Origin: a virus
Length of the DNA stretch: 39,344 bases
Virus genome (UHGV): UHGV-0031292
Direction: 5' to 3' (one strand)
The notes below the pieces were generated by a model. It saw only the letters and a list, made by a program, of their open reading frames with translations. It was not told the origin of the DNA and did not search any database. The translations under genes and the position numbers were made by a program. This document shows positions 3,063 to 39,284 of the stretch, piece by piece. Each line of letters starts with the position of its first letter. Position 1 is the stretch's first letter.

Positions 3063-3944
3063 TTACATAGATGTTTCGTTTAATTCTTCCCGACGAGCGC
3101 TGTAAACGTCGGTGGCTTTTGCCAGCAGTTCGTCATCATCTGAAAGTTTTTGTGCAATGTATTTGTAAGCCTTATCCAGTTCGGAGACAGTGCTGTAATT
3201 CATCGCTGCGCTGGTAAAGGCCATCAGCATTTCTTCTGGATCACGGCTATCAGCTTTACGCGTTTGCTCATCAGGCTTTTTCACCGGTTTAGCGTTGATC
3301 AGACTGTTCATTCCCGCAGCAGTAGTCGTTTGCGGAGTAATGTCTCGCTCAACGCGCGGTGCCGTTTCCTGTAATTCGTCAGGGGTGTAAACACCGAGAA
3401 GTACATCAGGAGCGTGCAGGCGAGCCCATCGTTTCGTGCAAAGATAGGCAAGCTGCTGGCGCGGATCCTGTTCCCACAATGGAGAGTTACGCACTCCGGC
3501 TTGCGCCATACTGATGGTAAGCTCACGGGGTTCTGCTTCTCCTTTAAGAACCGCTGACACAGTTACCGTCAGATTCGGTGATTTATCTGTTTTGCCGTTA
3601 ACATTCGACCAGTCACCGCTCCAGCGATAATTCAGACGTGTCGCTAGCAGGCTGGAAGAGGATACGACCGCGTTTACCAACTGTGCTTCGTAGCCTAACG
3701 TTCCGTTTACCACATGCGTTTTTTGCGCCACGGCGAAAGGGTTCATTCCCCACTGTGCCGCCTGCATGGTCACCGCCAGACAATCGGCAGGTTTGCCTTC
3801 AAGATGTTTCGGTACAGTAGCTTTGCTTTGTGACATCAACTCCGCGAAACGCACCAGTTGATTCATGCCCTCCGGGCTGAAGATTGCCGCAGCAGTGCCT
3901 ACAGTTGCGCCTGGTTGTGATGTGATTGCGATATCATTGCTCAT
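3063..3944 (-). CDS. RecT-family single-strand annealing recombinase
   Basis: 293-aa ORF; conserved RecT-like core (QAAQWGMNPFAVAQKTHVVNGTLGYEAQLVNAV); start overlaps the upstream exonuclease stop. Confidence 0.75.
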   Translation of the reverse strand: MSNDIAITSQPGATVGTAAAIFSPEGMNQLVRFAELMSQSKATVPKHLEGKPADCLAVTMQAAQWGMNPFAVAQKTHVVNGTLGYEAQLVNAVVSSSSLLATRLNYRWSGDWSNVNGKTDKSPNLTVTVSAVLKGEAEPRELTISMAQAGVRNSPLWEQDPRQQLAYLCTKRWARLHAPDVLLGVYTPDELQETAPRVERDITPQTTTAAGMNSLINAKPVKKPDEQTRKADSRDPEEMLMAFTSAAMNYSTVSELDKAYKYIAQKLSDDDELLAKATDVYSARREELNETSM

Positions 3945-4762
3945 ACGTACATATCCTGTTTACGTGCCCAGTCAGGGCGTTTAATAATTTCTACACCGCC
4001 CCATTCATCATTGATGCGGCATTCGTGATAGGTATTCAGATCCCGGCGGAACAGAGCGTGCCCGGCATCGACATCCGGTGCATCCAGCTCGAACACGCGT
4101 ACCGGATACCGACCACAATCAATGCTTTCGCTCACGGCAAGAAAGAAAAAACCATGCGACTGACCAGTAACCCTCATTGCTCCTTCGCGGTACATTGCGT
4201 CCTGCACGTGGTAGCGGAATTCCTCGATGTGGCGTGCAAAACGGTCCATATCTGCAACCTTTTTCACGTCGACGATCACGTTGTGCTCGTTCAGCCATTT
4301 GTCTGGACGAATGCGGCACAACTCACCAGTCTCTTCATCGTTCCAGTACATTGATGCTTCGCAGTAACCAGGTGCTTCCAGCATCCAGCGTGCAGCCGGG
4401 TGAGCCATTGCGCTATCACGCATCAGCTCCAGTTTTCGCCACTGCTCGACATCAAGTACCGTAATACCCATATCCGCCACATCACGAAGAAATGCTTCTT
4501 CGTCAGCTTTACCTTGTTTTGTCCGACGATCGAATTTCGGTGAAACAATGAAGCGTTTGTCGAACTCTCCAGGCTCCAGAAGCAGACAGTGCAATGCGGT
4601 TCCCATATCCAGTGCAGACTTTTTCTCTTCGTCTTCTGGTGCTGCCTGAACCCATTTAAGAAGCGCCGGATTCTTGGCAACCATGTCCAGTTGCGACTTA
4701 CTCACGCCGTCACCGGCGTGGTAGTCTTCGTTGCTGATGTCGAAATAAATTCCCGGTTTCAT
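3941..4762 (-). CDS. PD-(D/E)XK exonuclease partner of RecT (RecE/YqaJ-like)
   Basis: 273-aa ORF immediately upstream of and coupled to RecT; D...D/E-x-K-like motif (RPDKW...IVDVKK). Confidence 0.65.
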   Translation of the reverse strand: MKPGIYFDISNEDYHAGDGVSKSQLDMVAKNPALLKWVQAAPEDEEKKSALDMGTALHCLLLEPGEFDKRFIVSPKFDRRTKQGKADEEAFLRDVADMGITVLDVEQWRKLELMRDSAMAHPAARWMLEAPGYCEASMYWNDEETGELCRIRPDKWLNEHNVIVDVKKVADMDRFARHIEEFRYHVQDAMYREGAMRVTGQSHGFFFLAVSESIDCGRYPVRVFELDAPDVDAGHALFRRDLNTYHECRINDEWGGVEIIKRPDWARKQDMYV

Positions 4763-5366: not shown

Positions 5367-5951
5367 TTATTGTTTGCTTTTTTCGTTCTGGTTGATGACA
5401 AATTCAATGTAACTTTCGATCTTTGCTTTCTCGGTTTCGGGTAACAATGCGTAGCGCGAGCGGTCATAGTTGATGGTCGCAGGGTCGTGCGGGTGAATCA
5501 GTAATTCATAGCCGTGACGCCCGAATGCGGATGCAACATTCTCCAGGGTGGAAATGGAAACGCTGACCTCATTGTTTAACAGGCGGCTGATTGTCACCTG
5601 GGCGACGCCGGATGCGCGGTGAAGTTTTCCCTGTGTTGAAAGGTCGCGGCTTTCGCTCATCCAGCGTTCCAGGTTGTGAGCCGCCAGTTGACCAATGTCG
5701 CTTGGTCCGACAGGCTGAAAACCTTCCTGAGAAAGCGAGCGATCGATATCAAGCCAGTTACGGGGTTTATTGGCGGCAGCTTCAATTTTTCGTGCAACCT
5801 GGTCGCCGATAACCTTCTTGCCAAGAGCCCAGCGGTTTACCAGATTTGCCTGAGTTCCAAGTTTTTCAGCCATCCGCGTCTGAACACCATTGAATTCACG
5901 GTCGATCAAGTCGTTGAGATTTTGCCTGCGGACGTCCTGGATACTTTTCAT
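5367..5951 (-). CDS. Prophage repressor (CI-like) with two tandem HTH_XRE domains and no recognisable S24 autocleavage domain
   Basis: 194-aa ORF divergent from cro; two HTH segments (QTRMAEKLGTQANLVNRWALGKK... and HRASGVAQVTISRLLNNEVSVSISTLENVA). Confidence 0.65.
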   Translation of the reverse strand: MKSIQDVRRQNLNDLIDREFNGVQTRMAEKLGTQANLVNRWALGKKVIGDQVARKIEAAANKPRNWLDIDRSLSQEGFQPVGPSDIGQLAAHNLERWMSESRDLSTQGKLHRASGVAQVTISRLLNNEVSVSISTLENVASAFGRHGYELLIHPHDPATINYDRSRYALLPETEKAKIESYIEFVINQNEKSKQ

Positions 5952-6006: not shown

Positions 6007-6068
6007 TTACCCAACAGGTAAATGCACCTCATGGGTAACTATCCTTGATTTTTGTTACCTTATAGGTG
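6007..6068. promoter_or_regulatory. OR-like region: three tandem palindrome copies (6007-6021 exact; 6024-6038 and 6054-6068 variant) between repressor and cro
   Basis: TTACCCAACAGGTAA, GCACCTCATGGGTAA, TTACCTTATAGGTGA in the 154-bp divergent intergenic region. Confidence 0.7.
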
Positions 6069-6105
6069 AATATTTATTATCTGAAATAAATATCAGGCAA
6101 TAGCT

Positions 6106-6336
6106 ATGAGCGATAACGGACATTTCGATTTCAAAAAGCACTGGCTTGCACTTACTCCGGATGAGCGTGAAGCCTTCGCACAGGAAGCCGGAACGACGAG
6201 TCACTATATCCAGACTCACTTAACAGGTAAGCGCAAAATGCCAGGTAAAGTATTGATGAATGGGCTTTTTAAAGCCTGTAAAACAAGACAATGGCTGCGC
6301 TCAAAAGCAGAACTGGCATACTTCTTCTACTCATGA
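6106..6336 (+). CDS. Cro-like small DNA-binding regulator
   Basis: 76-aa ORF divergent from the repressor, just downstream of the OR-like sites; HTH-like segment EAGTTSHYIQTHLTGKR. Confidence 0.5.
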   Translation: MSDNGHFDFKKHWLALTPDEREAFAQEAGTTSHYIQTHLTGKRKMPGKVLMNGLFKACKTRQWLRSKAELAYFFYS

Positions 6337-14959: not shown

Positions 14960-15036
14960 CTGGCGTGGCATGCAGGATTCGAACCTGCGACCAACCGCTT
15001 AGAAGGCGGTTGCTCTGTCCGACTGAGCTAATGCCA
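14960..15036 (-). tRNA. tRNA-Arg, anticodon UCU (decodes AGA)
   Basis: Minus-strand 77-nt sequence GTGGCATTAGCTCAGTCGGACAGAGCAACCGCCTTCTAAGCGGTTGGTCGCAGGTTCGAATCCTGCATGCCACGCCA folds as a cloverleaf (7-bp acceptor stem, CTTCTAA anticodon loop, GGTTCGAATCC T-arm, encoded CCA). Confidence 0.85.
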
Positions 15037-15359
15037 CAACGCTGAGAGCACTTAGCCTGTTAAGGCGCCACACTTTGTCGCGGCTCCATAAATGCTCTCA
15101 TCGTTGTACCCTCGTCTCTTCCGAGGCGTCACACCGAATCGCCGGGATGGTGAATCCCCGTGCGCGGAATAAAACCGCTCGACTTGCACATTCCGGCTAC
15201 CTGGTTCGTTTGCTCGAGCAAGGGAGGGTGCCCCTTAAACGTATCCAGACCGCTATCGGCGCATGTGCCATACGCCGTACTGCTCAAAATAAAAGCTCAC
15301 TCCTCCTGTTCAATTTAACGACAAGCCAGTCAGGTTAATAACCGGAATGAACTCTTTGC

Positions 15360-32214: not shown

Positions 32215-32739
32215 TTACCAAAACTTGTACCACGGGGATTTATCCTTCAATGGACAATCCTTCCATCGTGTGGCCAACCATTCATATTCTTTAAAATATG
32301 TGTTTATGTTTTCTTTTTCTCTAATGGCTTGTATAAGAGGTAGCGCAATCTGATAGTTATTTACAACGGAGCTGTAAAATACTTCCTTAATCATGGTCTC
32401 ATCATAAGTTTTCCGCTTCACGCTCACAGCCATGCGTTCGTAGAAACCTAGACAGTAAATTATTTCTCTCTTCTCTGTCTTTTCTTCATCCGTAAGATCA
32501 GCCTGCCCATTGCTTGGATACATATAAGAGCGGAATGATTTGTTCGATTCGTGAATGCGGCGCATAGTAGATAGGCCTTTCTTATAATCTACATCAAACC
32601 TGCTTTCACCAAGGAATACTGAAGTGTGTACTTTTCTCGCTGTATTTACATTATAAATAATAGTAGCGATAGCTATGAACAAGCCAAGCGAAACCGCGAC
32701 TGCACTTACGATTTGAGCCACAGCCATGGCAAATTGCAT
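32215..32739 (-). CDS. Membrane-anchored protein of unknown function (N-terminal TM helix plus about 140-aa soluble domain), AT-rich accessory gene
   Basis: 179-aa ORF (GTG at 32754 or ATG MQFAMAV); single N-terminal hydrophobic helix; low GC. Confidence 0.5.
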   Translation of the reverse strand: MQFAMAVAQIVSAVAVSLGLFIAIATIIYNVNTARKVHTSVFLGESRFDVDYKKGLSTMRRIHESNKSFRSYMYPSNGQADLTDEEKTEKREIIYCLGFYERMAVSVKRKTYDETMIKEVFYSSVVNNYQIALPLIQAIREKENINTYFKEYEWLATRWKDCPLKDKSPWYKFW

Positions 32740-32772
32740 TTCTTCACTTAACACAAACTGTCTCCAGACATG

Positions 32773-32963: not shown

Positions 32964-33689
32964 TCAGAAGAACCCTGCTTTGTCGTTGATGTACTCCGCG
33001 TGCGTCTGGATATCACGCAGGCATTTGCTCACACCGACGATGTAGCAGAACATGGTGGTCAGCTCCGCCGCCGCGCCCGATACGTCGTGCCCGTCGTCCT
33101 GTAACTGGTTCAGCAGATTCATCAGCAGTGAGTTCTCCGTCAGGCCGAGAACACCAGACGGAGAATGAATCAGACTGCGGTAGCCGGGCTTCAGTGGGGC
33201 GCTGTAGGTTTTGTTCTCTATCTTCATTGCCTGCATCACTGCTGATGCTGTGGCGTTGGCTACCTGGTCGGCAACCATCTTTATGCGTTCTTCCTGCGGG
33301 AGCGAGTTTTTAATGTAACTTCCGGTGCGGCGGATCTGAGGAAGAACCTCACCTGTAACCCATTTACGAAAGCGGTAGGGGATAGTGCCTGGTGTCACTG
33401 CGTCGCGGCAGCGGAGGATCAGTGTGTAGAGGCCTGACTCGGAGATGATGTTGATCTCTTTTACTCGGCTGTCAAAAATCGCACGATGTTCATGCCCTAT
33501 GTTGAACATAGACCTTTCATCATCATCCAGTTTTTCAAGTGCTTGGGTGACGTTTTGGATACGCAGCGCACTACAAACGTCTTGGGCTACAAACCATGGT
33601 TGGCCATCGATAATGATGGAACGGATAGGGTTAACAGATTCAAATTTGAAGATGGCAGTTTGAGCATTAGCCATGGTGGTTATCTCCAC
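32964..33689 (-). CDS. Bro-N (KilA-N-like) domain antirepressor
   Basis: 241-aa ORF with N-terminal Bro-N-like segment (FESVNPIRSIIIDGQPWFVAQDVCSALRIQN); C-terminal region paralogous to the 33990 gene. Confidence 0.7.
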   Translation of the reverse strand: MEITTMANAQTAIFKFESVNPIRSIIIDGQPWFVAQDVCSALRIQNVTQALEKLDDDERSMFNIGHEHRAIFDSRVKEINIISESGLYTLILRCRDAVTPGTIPYRFRKWVTGEVLPQIRRTGSYIKNSLPQEERIKMVADQVANATASAVMQAMKIENKTYSAPLKPGYRSLIHSPSGVLGLTENSLLMNLLNQLQDDGHDVSGAAAELTTMFCYIVGVSKCLRDIQTHAEYINDKAGFF

Positions 33690-33692
33690 TTA

Positions 33693-33706
33693 GTGATTTT
33701 AATCAC
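33693..33706. promoter_or_regulatory. 14-bp perfect palindrome GTGATTTTAATCAC immediately upstream of the antirepressor start
   Basis: Starts 4 bp upstream of the ATG. Confidence 0.4.
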
Positions 33707-33827
33707 CACCGCAACGCCAATTACTGGTGGTGAACTGGACAAGGTTGGCGTACCGGCCTAAGTGGTACCGGCGTCCTTTCGGACCCCTGCCCAGCCCACC
33801 ATAATTCGGATATAGCTGTGCTTAACG

Positions 33828-33852
33828 CATAAAAAAACCACGTCTGGCGTGG
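33828..33852 (-). terminator. Intrinsic terminator on minus strand (CCACG-CCAGA-CGTGG plus T7) between the two antirepressor-like genes
   Basis: Plus strand reads AAAAAAACCACGTCTGGCGTGG. Confidence 0.55.
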
Positions 33853-33943
33853 TATGCGCCACTTAGTAACTCGGGACGCCAATCCCGGCACTGGATTTTG
33901 CCAGTGCCCGATTACTATGGCACAAGAGGAGTGCGATGTAAAT

Positions 33944-33958
33944 TTACCGCAAAGGTAA
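33944..33958. promoter_or_regulatory. Exact palindrome copy TTACCGCAAAGGTAA in the antirepressor leader
   Basis: Perfect TTACC-N5-GGTAA. Confidence 0.5.
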
Positions 33959-33989: not shown

Positions 33990-34247
33990 TTATCTGGTTT
34001 GTTTTCGTAATTGTTCGACACAATAGTCGAGATGTGTTTGCAGATCCTGCATAGTCATCTGTGAGCTGGTGACGTAGTTAATCAGTGCAGTCAGTTCGGC
34101 AAGTGGGCCATCGACATTAAATCCATCCTTATCGAGATCCCGGAGTAATTTCATCAAGTGCGATCCCTCCACCAGTGACCTGACGCCTCCCGGCGTGTGA
34201 ATCCTTTCGGTAAATCCGTCTTCCAGTGGATAGTGATACCGCTGCAT
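33990..34247 (-). CDS. Small antirepressor-like protein (about 85 aa), paralogous to the C-terminal domain of the Bro-N antirepressor; putatively LexA-controlled
   Basis: First ATG (MQRYHY) preceded by GGAG; shared motif H(T/S)PxGV..L.E.S.LM.LL..L..DG..V.G...ELT.....V...........LQTH..Y with 32964-33689; LexA box about 22 bp upstream. Confidence 0.55.
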   Translation of the reverse strand: MQRYHYPLEDGFTERIHTPGGVRSLVEGSHLMKLLRDLDKDGFNVDGPLAELTALINYVTSSQMTMQDLQTHLDYCVEQLRKQTR

Positions 34248-34268
34248 CTTATCTTCTCCATGCAATAA

Positions 34269-34284
34269 CTGTATAAATATACAG
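34269..34284. promoter_or_regulatory. LexA (SOS) box CTGTATAAATATACAG (20-mer AACTGTATAAATATACAGTA)
   Basis: Near-perfect match to the CTGT-N8-ACAG consensus, about 22 bp upstream of the antirepressor-like gene start. Confidence 0.7.
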
Positions 34285-34323
34285 TATCAAATAATTTGTT
34301 TGCTATCCAGCACGTTTTGCAAA

Positions 34324-34338
34324 TTACCTGAAAGGTAA
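34324..34338. promoter_or_regulatory. Exact palindrome copy TTACCTGAAAGGTAA upstream of the tailspike; start of a promoter-like module
   Basis: Identical to 15360-15374; CCATATATGGTT follows at 34367-34380. Confidence 0.6.
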
Positions 34339-34442: not shown

Positions 34443-36890
34443 ATGACGGTATCAACCGAAGTTGACCACAACGAATACACCGGTAACGGTGTTACAACGG
34501 CATTCCCTTATACCTTCAGGATTTTCCAGAAATCTGATTTAGTAGTGCAGGTTGTTGACCTGAACGAGAACATCACAGAGCTGATTCTTGATACTGATTA
34601 CATAGTCACTGGTGCTGGAGGGTATAACGGCGGCAATGTAATTCTGTCGAAGGCGTTGGCTAACGGTTATCAGATTTCTATATCAAGAGAGCTACCGGTT
34701 ACGCAGGATACCGATCTGCGCAACCAGGGTAAGTTCTTCGCTGAGGTGCATGAAGACGCATTCGATAAACTGACGATGCTGATACAGCAGGTTAGAAGTT
34801 GGTTTAGGTTGGCTCTGCGTAAACCATCATTTATTGCTAATTATTATGATGCCTTGAACAATTATATTCGCAATCTTCGTGACCCGTCACGGCCTCAAGA
34901 TGCAGCCACAAAAAATTATGTTGATAACTTATCAGTAACGAATTCAAACAGGGCTATACGAGTACCTGAACCATTTATATCATCGCTTCCTGATATTGAT
35001 GGTAGAAAAAACAAATCATTAAGCTTTGATAACGCAGGGGAACCATTGCTTTTAGATCCTGCTCAAAGCGGATTATGGGGTTATGTTCTGATTGATTCGT
35101 TTCAACTTGGAGCGAATATAACGACTAGATTCCAGGCACTACACTGGTCTTTACCTGATGGTAATGGTGAGTATTATCGTTGGGATGGAGAACTCCCAAA
35201 AATAGTTATGCCCGGTTCAACGCCAGATAGTTCTGGGGGCATTGGTCCTGGGGCTTGGTTGAGCGTTGGTGATGCTACACTACGATCCATGCTTTCATCA
35301 TGGAAAGGTTATTCATTTATAGATAATGGGAATCTTTCTTTATACAAAAAGAAAGGCTTGTTCGGTGACGCAGGGGAAGTTGAAACCTCATATGATGTTG
35401 TACAGCATTCTGATGGTTTCTGGTATAAATACACCGGAAGTCTGCCTTTTACTTATGGGGCAGCACCTGATTCCTTATGGGTAAATGTTGGTAATCTTAC
35501 CGGTTTTCCTGAGAATTCCCCGGAAAACTTTGGAGCTATTCCAGGGGTTGAAACATCTGATTGCCTACCCGCAATTAAATTGGCTATTTTAACTGGAACT
35601 CTACGACTAACCCCTGGAGAGACATATTATGTTTCTGATGAGGTTATCATCCCGTCTAACCTTATAATGTTTACAAACTCTGCAACAATTAAAGCGATGC
35701 CATCAGTAACATGGACGGGTAAAGCTGTCGTTAGGGCTAGCAAAAAGCCAGTAGGAACATCCCCGGACCTTTCATTGCCTGAACAACAAGTTCGTGGAAT
35801 TAGGCACATTGGTACATTAAATATTGATGCTAACAATGTTGCGCCTTACGGTTTTTATGGTTTTGGTGTAGTTGCAGAATCTGTCACAGACATTATATAT
35901 GCTTATAATGCCACAGAACTTGGAATTGTACTTCTTGGGAGTTGGTATCATAAAGTAAATCAATATATGGCAATTGATTGTGCAAGAGGTGTCTCTTTGG
36001 CGCATGGTTTCTCCGGTGAAACCGGAGATGTAAACGTTAATGGTGTTGAATTTGGTGTCGTCGCTGCGTATAACACATCAAAATCTTTGTCCTATGGGTA
36101 TGATCCGTATTCATCATCTTTAACCCCACAGCTCATAGGTGCCGGTGTCACTCTCGGGCAAGGATTGGCATCAAGAATAGGAACATTAATAGCTGAAACC
36201 ACAGCAGGCGCTGGTTTAGCTACTGTTAACGCTGTTAGTTGGTCTGTTGGTTCTATGTACTTTGAAAAATGCAGTGAAGCGCTTGAAGATAGTGCAGAGC
36301 CTGATATTGCGATATTATCAACTACAGGAAATGTCGAGGACCACGTATTTGACGTCGGTAATATCCATTTTGGCATAGGGACTGGTATACTGCAAAGAGC
36401 AACGGCAAGTGAGTTTCTCAACATCCAATCCATATACCGTATAGACAATAAAAAAACATGGCATAGTTCCTCAAAGGCGTCTTCAAGTTTTGTAAATTTC
36501 GTAAACTATTACGTTCTCAACCCTTATGATTACGTTAAACCGGTTCAACTGACTAATGACGTAGGCAAGGATGTTATAAGTTCATCGGCAATGCTTAACT
36601 TTAAGGATTTTTCAAATACGCCAAATATCCCATTTTTTTATACTGGCGGTGATCTTGATATTAATATAAGCATATCAGATGGTTCGATTATTGGGCTTGG
36701 TATTCAGGTTCAGTCTGAAGATGGAATTGAATATATAACATGCACATCATCACCGTTTTCAGCAAAGCTAACAAAAAGGAGAAATGCTTATTCTGTTTAT
36801 TGGGTATCAATGGGAACTCCAGTTCAAGAAGCTACTGGCATGGGGGCGATTATAATAACAAAACAAAAAACTTCTCAATGGCTTCGTTAG
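34443..36890 (+). CDS. Tailspike protein (conserved N-terminal virion-attachment region, AT-rich variable C-terminal receptor-binding domain)
   Basis: 815-aa ORF at the end of the virion module; composition shifts to AT-rich from about 34.8 kb. Confidence 0.7.
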   Translation: MTVSTEVDHNEYTGNGVTTAFPYTFRIFQKSDLVVQVVDLNENITELILDTDYIVTGAGGYNGGNVILSKALANGYQISISRELPVTQDTDLRNQGKFFAEVHEDAFDKLTMLIQQVRSWFRLALRKPSFIANYYDALNNYIRNLRDPSRPQDAATKNYVDNLSVTNSNRAIRVPEPFISSLPDIDGRKNKSLSFDNAGEPLLLDPAQSGLWGYVLIDSFQLGANITTRFQALHWSLPDGNGEYYRWDGELPKIVMPGSTPDSSGGIGPGAWLSVGDATLRSMLSSWKGYSFIDNGNLSLYKKKGLFGDAGEVETSYDVVQHSDGFWYKYTGSLPFTYGAAPDSLWVNVGNLTGFPENSPENFGAIPGVETSDCLPAIKLAILTGTLRLTPGETYYVSDEVIIPSNLIMFTNSATIKAMPSVTWTGKAVVRASKKPVGTSPDLSLPEQQVRGIRHIGTLNIDANNVAPYGFYGFGVVAESVTDIIYAYNATELGIVLLGSWYHKVNQYMAIDCARGVSLAHGFSGETGDVNVNGVEFGVVAAYNTSKSLSYGYDPYSSSLTPQLIGAGVTLGQGLASRIGTLIAETTAGAGLATVNAVSWSVGSMYFEKCSEALEDSAEPDIAILSTTGNVEDHVFDVGNIHFGIGTGILQRATASEFLNIQSIYRIDNKKTWHSSSKASSSFVNFVNYYVLNPYDYVKPVQLTNDVGKDVISSSAMLNFKDFSNTPNIPFFYTGGDLDINISISDGSIIGLGIQVQSEDGIEYITCTSSPFSAKLTKRRNAYSVYWVSMGTPVQEATGMGAIIITKQKTSQWLR

Positions 36891-36893
36891 ATA

Positions 36894-37085
36894 ATGGCTT
36901 TATATAATGAAGCTATAATTATTTACGTTATAAGACATGATGTTTTGCATGGTAACCAATATTGGTTGTCTGGAGATGTATGGGGGCTAGTCTACAATAT
37001 AATCAGTCCTGATAATGCAAATTACAGTTACATGTATAAAAGGCCTAGCGGTAAAATAACATTATTCAACACATTTACACCATAA
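36894..37085 (+). CDS. Small AT-rich hypothetical ORF after the tailspike (doubtful)
   Basis: 63-aa ORF, no clear ribosome-binding site; followed by terminator. Confidence 0.2.
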   Translation: MALYNEAIIIYVIRHDVLHGNQYWLSGDVWGLVYNIISPDNANYSYMYKRPSGKITLFNTFTP

Positions 37086-37090
37086 AGTAC

Positions 37091-37128
37091 AAAGCGCCAT
37101 CTATATTATTGTAGATGGTGCTTTTAAT
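37091..37128 (+). terminator. Intrinsic terminator after the tailspike region (GCGCCATCTA...TAGATGGTGC plus T-run)
   Basis: Inverted repeat followed by TTTTAATTTT. Confidence 0.5.
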
Positions 37129-37241
37129 TTTATCTGTTTTTTTCGATATCAATTATTATATTTCAATTAAATAAATTACATAGCACATAAGTAACTTATA
37201 GCTTATAAAAATACGTTAGTTTTTAGAATGATAAGATTTAT

Positions 37242-37256
37242 CACCTTTAGGGTAAT
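37242..37256. promoter_or_regulatory. Palindrome copy (variant TCACCTTTAGGGTAA) upstream of the lysis cassette; promoter-like module with CCATATATGGTTT at 37288-37300
   Basis: Matches xxACC-N5-GGTAA; downstream element as in the portal and tailspike copies. Confidence 0.5.
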
Positions 37257-37359
37257 TTATGTATTGTCATGGTTAGGTAGTTAGATCCATATATGGTTTA
37301 TTGTGTATGATGAACTCACCAACTAAGGGGGTGTTAATGCACAGTAAACGGTGGTTGAT

Positions 37360-39267: not shown

Positions 39268-39284
39268 ATTGAGTGGGAATGATT
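39268..39284. repeat. attR core, 17-bp direct repeat ATTGAGTGGGAATGATT
   Basis: Exact copy of 61-77 at the far end of the prophage, followed by a terminator hairpin. Confidence 0.8.

Follow-up and report, generated by a model that had tools for sequence, protein, structure and literature searches.

How might a prophage be induced by DNA damage when its repressor carries no domain for self-cleavage? This question is raised by a 39,344-nucleotide stretch of viral DNA, UHGV virus genome UHGV-0031292, which is here called the window. We identify it as a prophage of the genus Uetakevirus (epsilon15/phiV10-like), integrated in Escherichia coli, that has an induction switch of the type found in Salmonella phage SPC32H; its parts are a LexA (SOS) box, the gene of a small antirepressor, ant, and the gene of a repressor, rep. 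We put at about 85% the probability that LexA holds ant off, that DNA damage removes LexA, and that Ant then disassembles a non-cleavable Rep, inducing the prophage. Downstream of ant lies a cassette with two small RNAs and a second antirepressor gene, whose relation to the first is considered below.

A LexA box, a small antirepressor and a two-domain repressor

The LexA box, AACTGTATAAATATACAGTA (34267..34286), agrees with the 20-nt consensus TACTGTATATATATACAGTA at 18 of 20 positions, the other two being mismatches. It is the sole site with three or fewer mismatches in the 39 kb, where 0.00 such sites are expected (0 of 100 shuffles), and among the three CTGT-N8-ACAG sites in the window only this one has an AT-rich core, the other two being GC-rich. 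The box ends 19 nt before the start codon of ant (33990..34247, minus strand; ATG at 34247, stop at 33990, ribosome-binding site GGAG at 34259–34256). When the upstream regions of the window, SPC32H, phiV10 and epsilon15 were aligned, the LexA box, the ribosome-binding site GGAGAAGA and the ATG fell in identical columns, and with Tyrion and two Klebsiella phages added TGT-N8-ACAGT was still invariant; in Tyrion, too, the box keeps its spacing to the ATG. CTGT and ACAG are unchanged in the Escherichia, Salmonella and Enterobacter relatives while the flanking bases differ; in the Klebsiella phages one half-site is degenerate, ATGT replacing CTGT. Furthermore, the records of SPC32H and of its lytic variant SPC32N differ at a single base in this stretch, a C in the ACAG half-site that is A in SPC32N. 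This difference fits what Kim and Ryu are said to have found in 2013, namely that a single mutation in the LexA site renders Ant constitutive and the phage lytic.

The product of ant, 85 residues long, is an ortholog of SPC32H Ant. Residues 2–84 match chain E, ‘Anti-repressor protein’, of PDB entry 5D50 (E 9.9e-47), the co-crystal of Rep and Ant from SPC32H; identity to the ‘ant’ product of SPC32H (GenBank KC911856) is 88.2%, and the protein was assigned to PHROG 450. Pfam held no family for the Ant domain, the sole match being a spurious, sub-threshold one to DUF724. Short Ant homologs are common across Escherichia, Salmonella, Citrobacter, Klebsiella and Yersinia, and some carry the title ‘Anti-repressor protein’ in UniRef; in RefSeq, where a 99.3%-identical E. 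coli prophage is annotated, Ant is labelled ‘hypothetical protein’.

The gene rep (5367..5951, minus strand) encodes a 194-residue repressor of the SPC32H Rep type with two HTH-type domains. Residues 1–190 match chain A of 5D50, ‘Repressor’ (E 3.5e-42), and the C-terminal half also matches 5D4Z, the Rep C-terminal domain. The second HTH domain (residues 106–147) scored above the Pfam cutoff as HTH_3; the first (residues 21–61) matched the YdaS_toxin model at 20.9 bits, below the 30-bit cutoff. At E values up to 0.1, Pfam returned HTH families only and no Peptidase_S24 match, and because it has no S24 domain Rep should not be cleavable via RecA. Rep is 99.5% identical to ZX5 Rep and 42.7% identical to the ‘rep’ product of SPC32H (KC911856). 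The antirepressor is far more conserved than its presumed target, at 88% and 43% identity, respectively, to the SPC32H counterparts.

These results bear out most of a sequence-only reading made before the present analysis. That reading had noted the near-consensus LexA box, a repressor with two HTH domains and no autocleavage domain, and a small gene product paralogous to the C-terminal part of the neighbouring Bro-N antirepressor, a relationship that we find to extend over 72 residues at 43% identity (E 2e-15). The box does lie upstream of the small gene as stated, although at 19 nt rather than the approximately 22 bp given. The proposal that a LexA-derepressed antirepressor acts on a non-autocleaving repressor gains support from orthology to the SPC32H pair (5D50 chains E and A), from the conserved box and from the SPC32N change. 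For precedent, the reading had turned to the Gifsy prophages and to Tum of coliphage 186; SPC32H, of the same genus, is closer.

In Salmonella phages of this kind, according to PMC7380047 and the study of Kim and Ryu 2013 to which it refers, the repressor is inhibited through protein–protein contact with an antirepressor under LexA control, and repressor cleavage is not the induction route. PMC9638917, summarising Kim et al. 2016, describes Rep as binding palindromic DNA as a tetramer; an Ant tetramer takes two Rep dimers, breaking the Rep tetramer. SPC32H Ant is likewise cited as a known antirepressor mechanism in a 2025 preprint. The window shares with SPC32H the Ant ortholog, a full-length Rep homolog, the spacing of the LexA box, the ribosome-binding site, the tailspike-divergent position of ant and the genus Uetakevirus. 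It differs in that Rep is only 43% identical, and in that SPC32H has a terminator and a convergent gene for a small membrane protein where the window has an isrK/C4/Bro-N cassette.

By analogy with SPC32H, in a lysogen host LexA bound at 34267–34286 would silence ant, while Rep would repress the lytic promoters. Upon DNA damage, self-cleavage of LexA would allow the 85-residue Ant to be made, to bind Rep and to break up its DNA-binding tetramer, leading to induction. The logic proposed for the window, in which LexA represses the gene of an antirepressor whose target is a repressor that cannot be cleaved, is also that of Tum and of GfoA/GfhA of the Gifsy prophages (Lemire et al. 2011, PMC3121763). 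We class Ant as resembling these proteins in the logic of its action and not as a member of their group. The abstract on SPC32H reportedly describes Ant as structurally distinct from Tum and GfoA/GfhA. The circuit of the window, being the Rep/Ant/LexA switch of SPC32H from the same genus, is already known and not new; both its genetics and its structure have been solved in SPC32H, at least 183 complete E. coli genomes contain it, and it adds no new principle.

Where Rep might bind is suggested by the palindrome TTACC-N5-GGTAA, of which the window contains 16 sites when one mismatch is allowed, where 0.64 would be expected (positions 211, 5233, 5295, 6007, 6055, 6392, 8314, 8376, 11822, 11840, 14742, 15360, 32884, 33944, 34324 and 37241). 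One candidate operator, (A)TTACC-N5-GGTAA(T) at 34324..34338, is situated in the spacer that separates ant from the tailspike gene, some 40 bp upstream of the LexA box, and its half-sites are invariant in seven phages. A second, at 33944..33958, abuts the –35 hexamer of the putative promoter of the isrK/C4/Bro-N cassette; in an alignment of five phages its half-sites are invariant and its 5-nt spacer variable. The pattern scan also placed two such palindromes (6007–6021 and 6055–6069) in the divergent rep/cro-like region, next to a plus-strand ORF (6106–6336) that matches PHROG 35, ‘transcriptional repressor’. In the GenBank record of epsilon15 the equivalent palindromes are marked ‘protein_bind repressor, lysogeny’. 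We infer that these palindromes are candidate Rep operators dispersed over the genome, much as the operators of P1 C1 are. If they are, Rep would also control the cassette promoter.

An RNA cassette and a second antirepressor gene

The second antirepressor gene (32964..33674, minus strand) encodes 236 residues, comprising an N-terminal Bro-N domain and a C-terminal Ant-like domain (approximately residues 153–234). The Bro-N domain (PF02498, residues 17–112) scored 71.5 bits against a cutoff of 25.6 (E 9.5e-20), and the protein matches PHROG 130, ‘anti-repressor Ant’ (E 5e-56). Residues 155–231 align with residues 3–79 of 5D50 chain E (E 2e-13), and the C-terminus matches PHROG 450, the family of Ant itself (E 6e-36). 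The gene most likely starts at ATG 33674, which is preceded by GGAG at 33687–33684 and is also the start chosen by RefSeq in the 99.3%-identical prophage, rather than at GTG 33689, the start implied by the coordinates of the sequence-only reading (32964–33689).

The Bro-N proteins of Tyrion and the Klebsiella phages also possess the Ant-like C-terminal domain, which has 19 invariant columns in common with the short Ants. Every record of the phage collection in which the Ant domain was found also holds an SPC32H-type Rep, and this co-occurrence suggests that the C-terminal domain of the Bro-N protein targets that Rep. ORF4 of phage ZX5 is 81% identical to the Bro-N protein of the window, with one difference over the last 170 aligned residues. 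When the window is set against ZX5 (1078–1773 of the ZX5 stretch compared), the Bro-N domain is mosaic over its first approximately 75 residues, with low identity and an indel, while the rest is almost identical; this pattern suggests that recombination has had a breakpoint within the gene. Exchange between the two paralogs is also suggested in a Klebsiella phage (2495–2755 and 3499–3759 of the stretch compared), in which the short Ant has a motif, DGHDVSGAAAEL, that resembles the Bro-N C-terminal domains (at most one change), unlike other short Ants.

Between ant and the Bro-N gene lies a 315-bp spacer with two minus-strand RNAs that score above their Rfam gathering thresholds. They are preceded by a promoter-like site found by consensus scan, TTTACA-17-CATAGT with a TG extension (33914..33942, minus strand), both hexamers of which are conserved in the five-phage alignment; its predicted start, about 33907, falls on the first position of the isrK model. 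The first RNA, of isrK type (33831..33907; RF01394, 67.2 bits, gathering 50), contains the elements a1 (UUGGCGU, 33882–33876) and b1 (CUAAGUGG, 33866–33859) followed by a terminator hairpin with a U7 run (33853–33837, terminator scan). The second is a C4-type antisense RNA (33723..33806; RF01695, 66.0 bits, gathering 45) that matches the full model, positions 1–87. In its predicted fold, b' (CCACUUAG, 33765–33758) occupies the loop of the second hairpin and a' (ACGCCAA, 33751–33745) is unpaired in the single strand that follows; the 266-nt region folds at z = –5.1 relative to shuffles. Complementarity to a' and b' recurs in the leader of the Bro-N gene (33684..33720, minus strand) as a2 (33720–33714) and b2 (33693–33686), the latter overlapping the GGAG ribosome-binding site. 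Both a' and b' are exactly complementary, over 7 and 8 nt, respectively, to a1/b1 and to a2/b2.

The pairing is upheld by covariation among relatives. Across four specificity types, b', b1 and b2 covary three ways: the b target is CUAAGUGG in the window, CUAAAAGG in phiV10 and TL-2011b, CUACAAAGG in Tyrion and CUAAACGG / CUAAGCGG in the Klebsiella phage, and every type has a matching C4 loop. The a elements covary in Tyrion, where an altered site, UUGGUCU, is paired with AGACCAA. In a loop-restricted search for contiguous pairing between C4 and its targets, cognate pairs gave 7–9 bp and non-cognate pairs mostly 4–5 bp; some non-cognate pairs also reached 7–9 bp, because the b sites of the window and the Klebsiella phage are G·U-related and the a sites are common to all phages but Tyrion. 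Whole-sequence RNAduplex energies of C4 with its targets, which are dominated by stem sequences, did not separate cognate from non-cognate pairs.

Of eight related phages scanned, five (phiV10, TL-2011b, ZX5, Tyrion and Klebsiella ST11-OXA245phi3.2) possess the Bro-N gene together with the isrK and C4 elements, and the other three (SPC32H, epsilon15 and BUCT711) possess neither the gene nor the RNAs. The promoter, the a1/b1 RNA with its terminator, C4 and the antirepressor gene form one cassette, which is a module of the P1 immI type that the sequence-only reading had missed. The Bro-N antirepressor cannot simply be counted with the LexA-controlled unit: between it and ant intervene the promoter-like site, the terminator of the isrK-type RNA and a C4-type RNA directed at its ribosome-binding site. 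The terminator scan found no terminator between the ant stop codon and the isrK element, so SOS-driven transcripts would probably enter the latter.

In phages P1 and P7, the work of Citron and Schuster in 1990 reportedly defined immI as an operon of the C4 antisense RNA, icd and ant. With this system the window shares the C4 fold, the pairing of a'/b' with upstream a1/b1 and downstream a2/b2, a b2 site that covers the ribosome-binding site of the ORF that follows, codirectional regulator and target, a downstream antirepressor gene, relatives whose specificity differs through covarying loops, and a candidate repressor operator at the promoter. It differs from P1/P7 in lacking an icd-like ORF, since C4 is followed by no ORF before the Bro-N start, and in that C4 targets the ribosome-binding site of the antirepressor gene itself. 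The window also differs in having an antirepressor composed of Bro-N and SPC32H-Ant domains, in being a small podovirus and in the family of its repressor.

A further parallel is provided by Gifsy-1, whose antirepressor-like protein AnrP induces the prophage and is controlled at translation by the short RNA IsrK together with a processed RNA from further downstream (Hershko-Shalev et al. 2016, PMC4825925). The isrK-orf45-anrP region resembles the window in having an isrK-family RNA with a rho-independent terminator, read through in Gifsy-1, followed on the same strand by an antirepressor gene; a processed C4-like RNA, STnc1160, precedes the RNA-controlled antirepressor-like gene as C4 does here (PMC4825925). 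The window differs from Gifsy-1 in that the orf45 frame is not kept, the ORF overlapping C4 comprising 14 codons in the window and shifting frame between phages; in the lack of a link to AntQ; and in the adjoining, LexA-controlled paralogous antirepressor.

The nearest functional data come from ZX5, which has the isrK and C4 RNAs, a near-identical Rep (its repressor, ORF21) and, in ORF4, a close relative of the Bro-N protein. Overexpression supports the roles of ORF21 as repressor and ORF4 as antirepressor: overexpressed Rep abolished free phage, and overexpressed ORF4 lowered the prophage titre about 1000-fold, from approximately 10^9 to 10^6 (PMC9782041). The same paper is silent on LexA, on the small Ant, which it annotates as hypothetical, and on the RNAs (PMC9782041). 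A ZX5 CDS annotated ‘ash family protein’ (1779–1892 of the ZX5 stretch compared) overlaps the C4 match, and an RNA gene has probably been mistaken here for a coding sequence; RefSeq annotates no ncRNA at the C4/isrK region in the 99.3%-identical prophage. Recognition of these elements is of value for annotation, since the small Ant is a ‘hypothetical protein’ in RefSeq and most phage records and the C4/isrK RNAs are either unannotated or ‘ash family protein’.

Possible roles of the two antirepressors

This phage and its relatives from E. coli, Enterobacter and Klebsiella have, in addition to the SPC32H-type switch, a cassette downstream of ant that comprises a putative promoter, an isrK-type RNA with a presumably leaky terminator, C4, and a Bro-N antirepressor bearing a copy of the Ant domain. 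We infer from the pairing at the Bro-N ribosome-binding site that C4 keeps the second antirepressor silent; by binding a2/b2 it would cover that site and leave the message untranslated, as in P1 immI and Gifsy-1 isrK-anrP. The small Ant might then read the LexA signal while the Bro-N/Ant-C protein is gated by C4 and IsrK, both acting through one shared Rep-binding domain in a feed-forward commitment to induction. Ant made during the SOS response would lift Rep off the cassette promoter, and transcripts from the ant promoter would add a1/b1 decoys that titrate C4; Bro-N/Ant-C would then be translated and lock induction. We offer this coupling as a speculation that is rather doubtful at present. 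We know of no description of LexA-gated and C4/IsrK-gated antirepressors coupled in tandem, and this unremarked arrangement around one effector domain is the novelty that remains in the locus; through it, two inputs, for induction or for anti-immunity, would converge on the one repressor of a single prophage.

Several points weigh against the proposed switch, or against the way in which its parts have been assigned. The mechanism is transferred to this phage by orthology. That Ant binds this Rep is likely on the same ground; the contact is extrapolated from SPC32H, to whose counterparts Rep is 43% and Ant 88% identical. The assignment of Rep operators has as its basis the distribution of sites and the annotation of the epsilon15 depositors. 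No convincing –35/–10 pair of a sigma-70 promoter was seen by eye over the LexA box, and the consensus scan gave none. In the cassette, the c4-a1b1 model RF03163 matched 33868–33920 in a permissive scan at 44.3 bits, just below its gathering score of 46.7. Finally, the detail that Rep of SPC32H is not cleaved comes from citing papers and, reportedly, from the abstract of the original study.

Among other accounts of the locus, the one that survives best gives the Bro-N cassette a different purpose. It could be a device for anti-immunity or cross-talk, expressed upon infection before C4 builds up and inactivating either the Rep of a resident related prophage, in the manner of P1 or P22 Ant, or the repressors of other prophages. 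The P1 immI architecture, the label ‘putative anti-immunity protein’ given by the phiV10 depositors, the variation of b'/b specificity types between phages as in P1/P7 heteroimmunity, and the mosaic N-terminal part of the Bro-N protein would all suit such a role. Unrelated repressors are less attractive as targets because, within the phage collection, the Ant domain was always accompanied by this Rep family. We regard the role as possible though not probable; it is in any case compatible with LexA-controlled induction through Ant, as the same protein could serve both.

It could also be that Bro-N/Ant-C is the main inducer and the small Ant an accessory, for example a modulator in mixed oligomers formed through the shared domain. 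Mixed oligomers are conceivable, given that the entire Ant domain, with its 19 invariant columns, is common to both proteins and that Ant is reported to be a tetramer; overexpression of ZX5 ORF4 alone, moreover, lowers lysogeny (PMC9782041). Yet SPC32H, epsilon15 and BUCT711 have the small Ant only, the LexA box precedes the small gene and not the Bro-N gene, and it is in this box that SPC32H and SPC32N differ. The phiV10 counterpart of the Bro-N gene is divided between two CDS, p23 and p22 (3571–4250 of the stretch compared), with its Ant-like domain matched in two pieces; it resembles a frameshifted copy and is probably inactive, although isrK and C4 are intact. phiV10 is nevertheless a working temperate phage, and the split implies that the second antirepressor is dispensable. 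A leading role for Bro-N/Ant-C is therefore improbable.

Less credible still is that an AT-rich inverted repeat has come to resemble a LexA box by chance, or serves as the site of a phage protein, and that ant is outside SOS control. The ATGT of the Klebsiella relatives in place of CTGT would be in keeping with this idea; the failure of 100 shuffles to produce a site within three mismatches, the invariance of CTGT and ACAG between varying flanks in the Escherichia, Salmonella and Enterobacter relatives, and the single ACAG change that separates SPC32H from SPC32N make it very unlikely. Least likely of all is RecA-stimulated cleavage of Rep by a non-S24 route with Ant dispensable. Nothing in the sequence speaks for it; Rep has no Peptidase_S24 match and aligns over its full length with 5D50 Rep, which has N- and C-terminal HTH-type domains, and in the Salmonella phages of this kind cleavage is not the route (PMC7380047).

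The prophage and its neighbouring genes

A 17-nt att core, ATTGAGTGGGAATGATT, occurs twice in the window, at 61–77 and 39268–39284. The same sequence is the att core of ZX5, phiV10 and epsilon15 (PMC9782041), phages that integrate at the 3' end of guaA. With the core at both ends, the window represents a complete integrated prophage with attL and attR. Its nearest phage records are E. coli Uetakevirus phages; across the region of interest identity is 97.9% to HEMP4 and 91–94% to ZX5, TL-2011b and phiV10. The 1.3-kb stretch that holds the module is present in part in 534 of 5426 complete E. coli genomes, and 183 of the 5426 have at least 80% of it.

The position of ant next to the tailspike gene had been thought unusual, as a place where epsilon15-type phages carry O-antigen conversion genes, but it is normal for the group. 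The gene order ejection protein, small membrane protein, ant, tailspike is common to the window, SPC32H and epsilon15, in which gp19 is the Ant ortholog at the equivalent position, and in all three ant is transcribed away from the tailspike gene. The O-antigen conversion genes of epsilon15 lie downstream of the tailspike gene, on the side opposite ant, and oac of SPC32H and phiV10 likewise lies beyond the tailspike gene and away from ant. The notion that the module substitutes for such genes was accordingly rejected. After the tailspike gene, the relatives carry oac (phiV10, SPC32H) or polymerase genes (epsilon15); the corresponding part of the window (36890–37350) has very small ORFs only and no O-antigen acetylase or conversion gene.

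On the other side, the Bro-N gene is followed by a hairpin that resembles a terminator, by a copy of the TTACC-N5-GGTAA palindrome with one mismatch (32884), and then by a gene for a 179-residue DUF4760 protein (32215–32754, minus strand; Pfam E 8e-31; PHROG 2284, function unknown). A defence-island reading of this region was dropped, PADLOC having given zero defence-system matches for Ant, the Bro-N protein and the adjacent DUF4760 protein. The DUF4760 protein may be an accessory gene product expressed from the prophage. Elsewhere in the prophage, a tRNA-Arg gene with anticodon TCT was detected at 14961–15037 on the minus strand (ARAGORN; Rfam, 73 bits).

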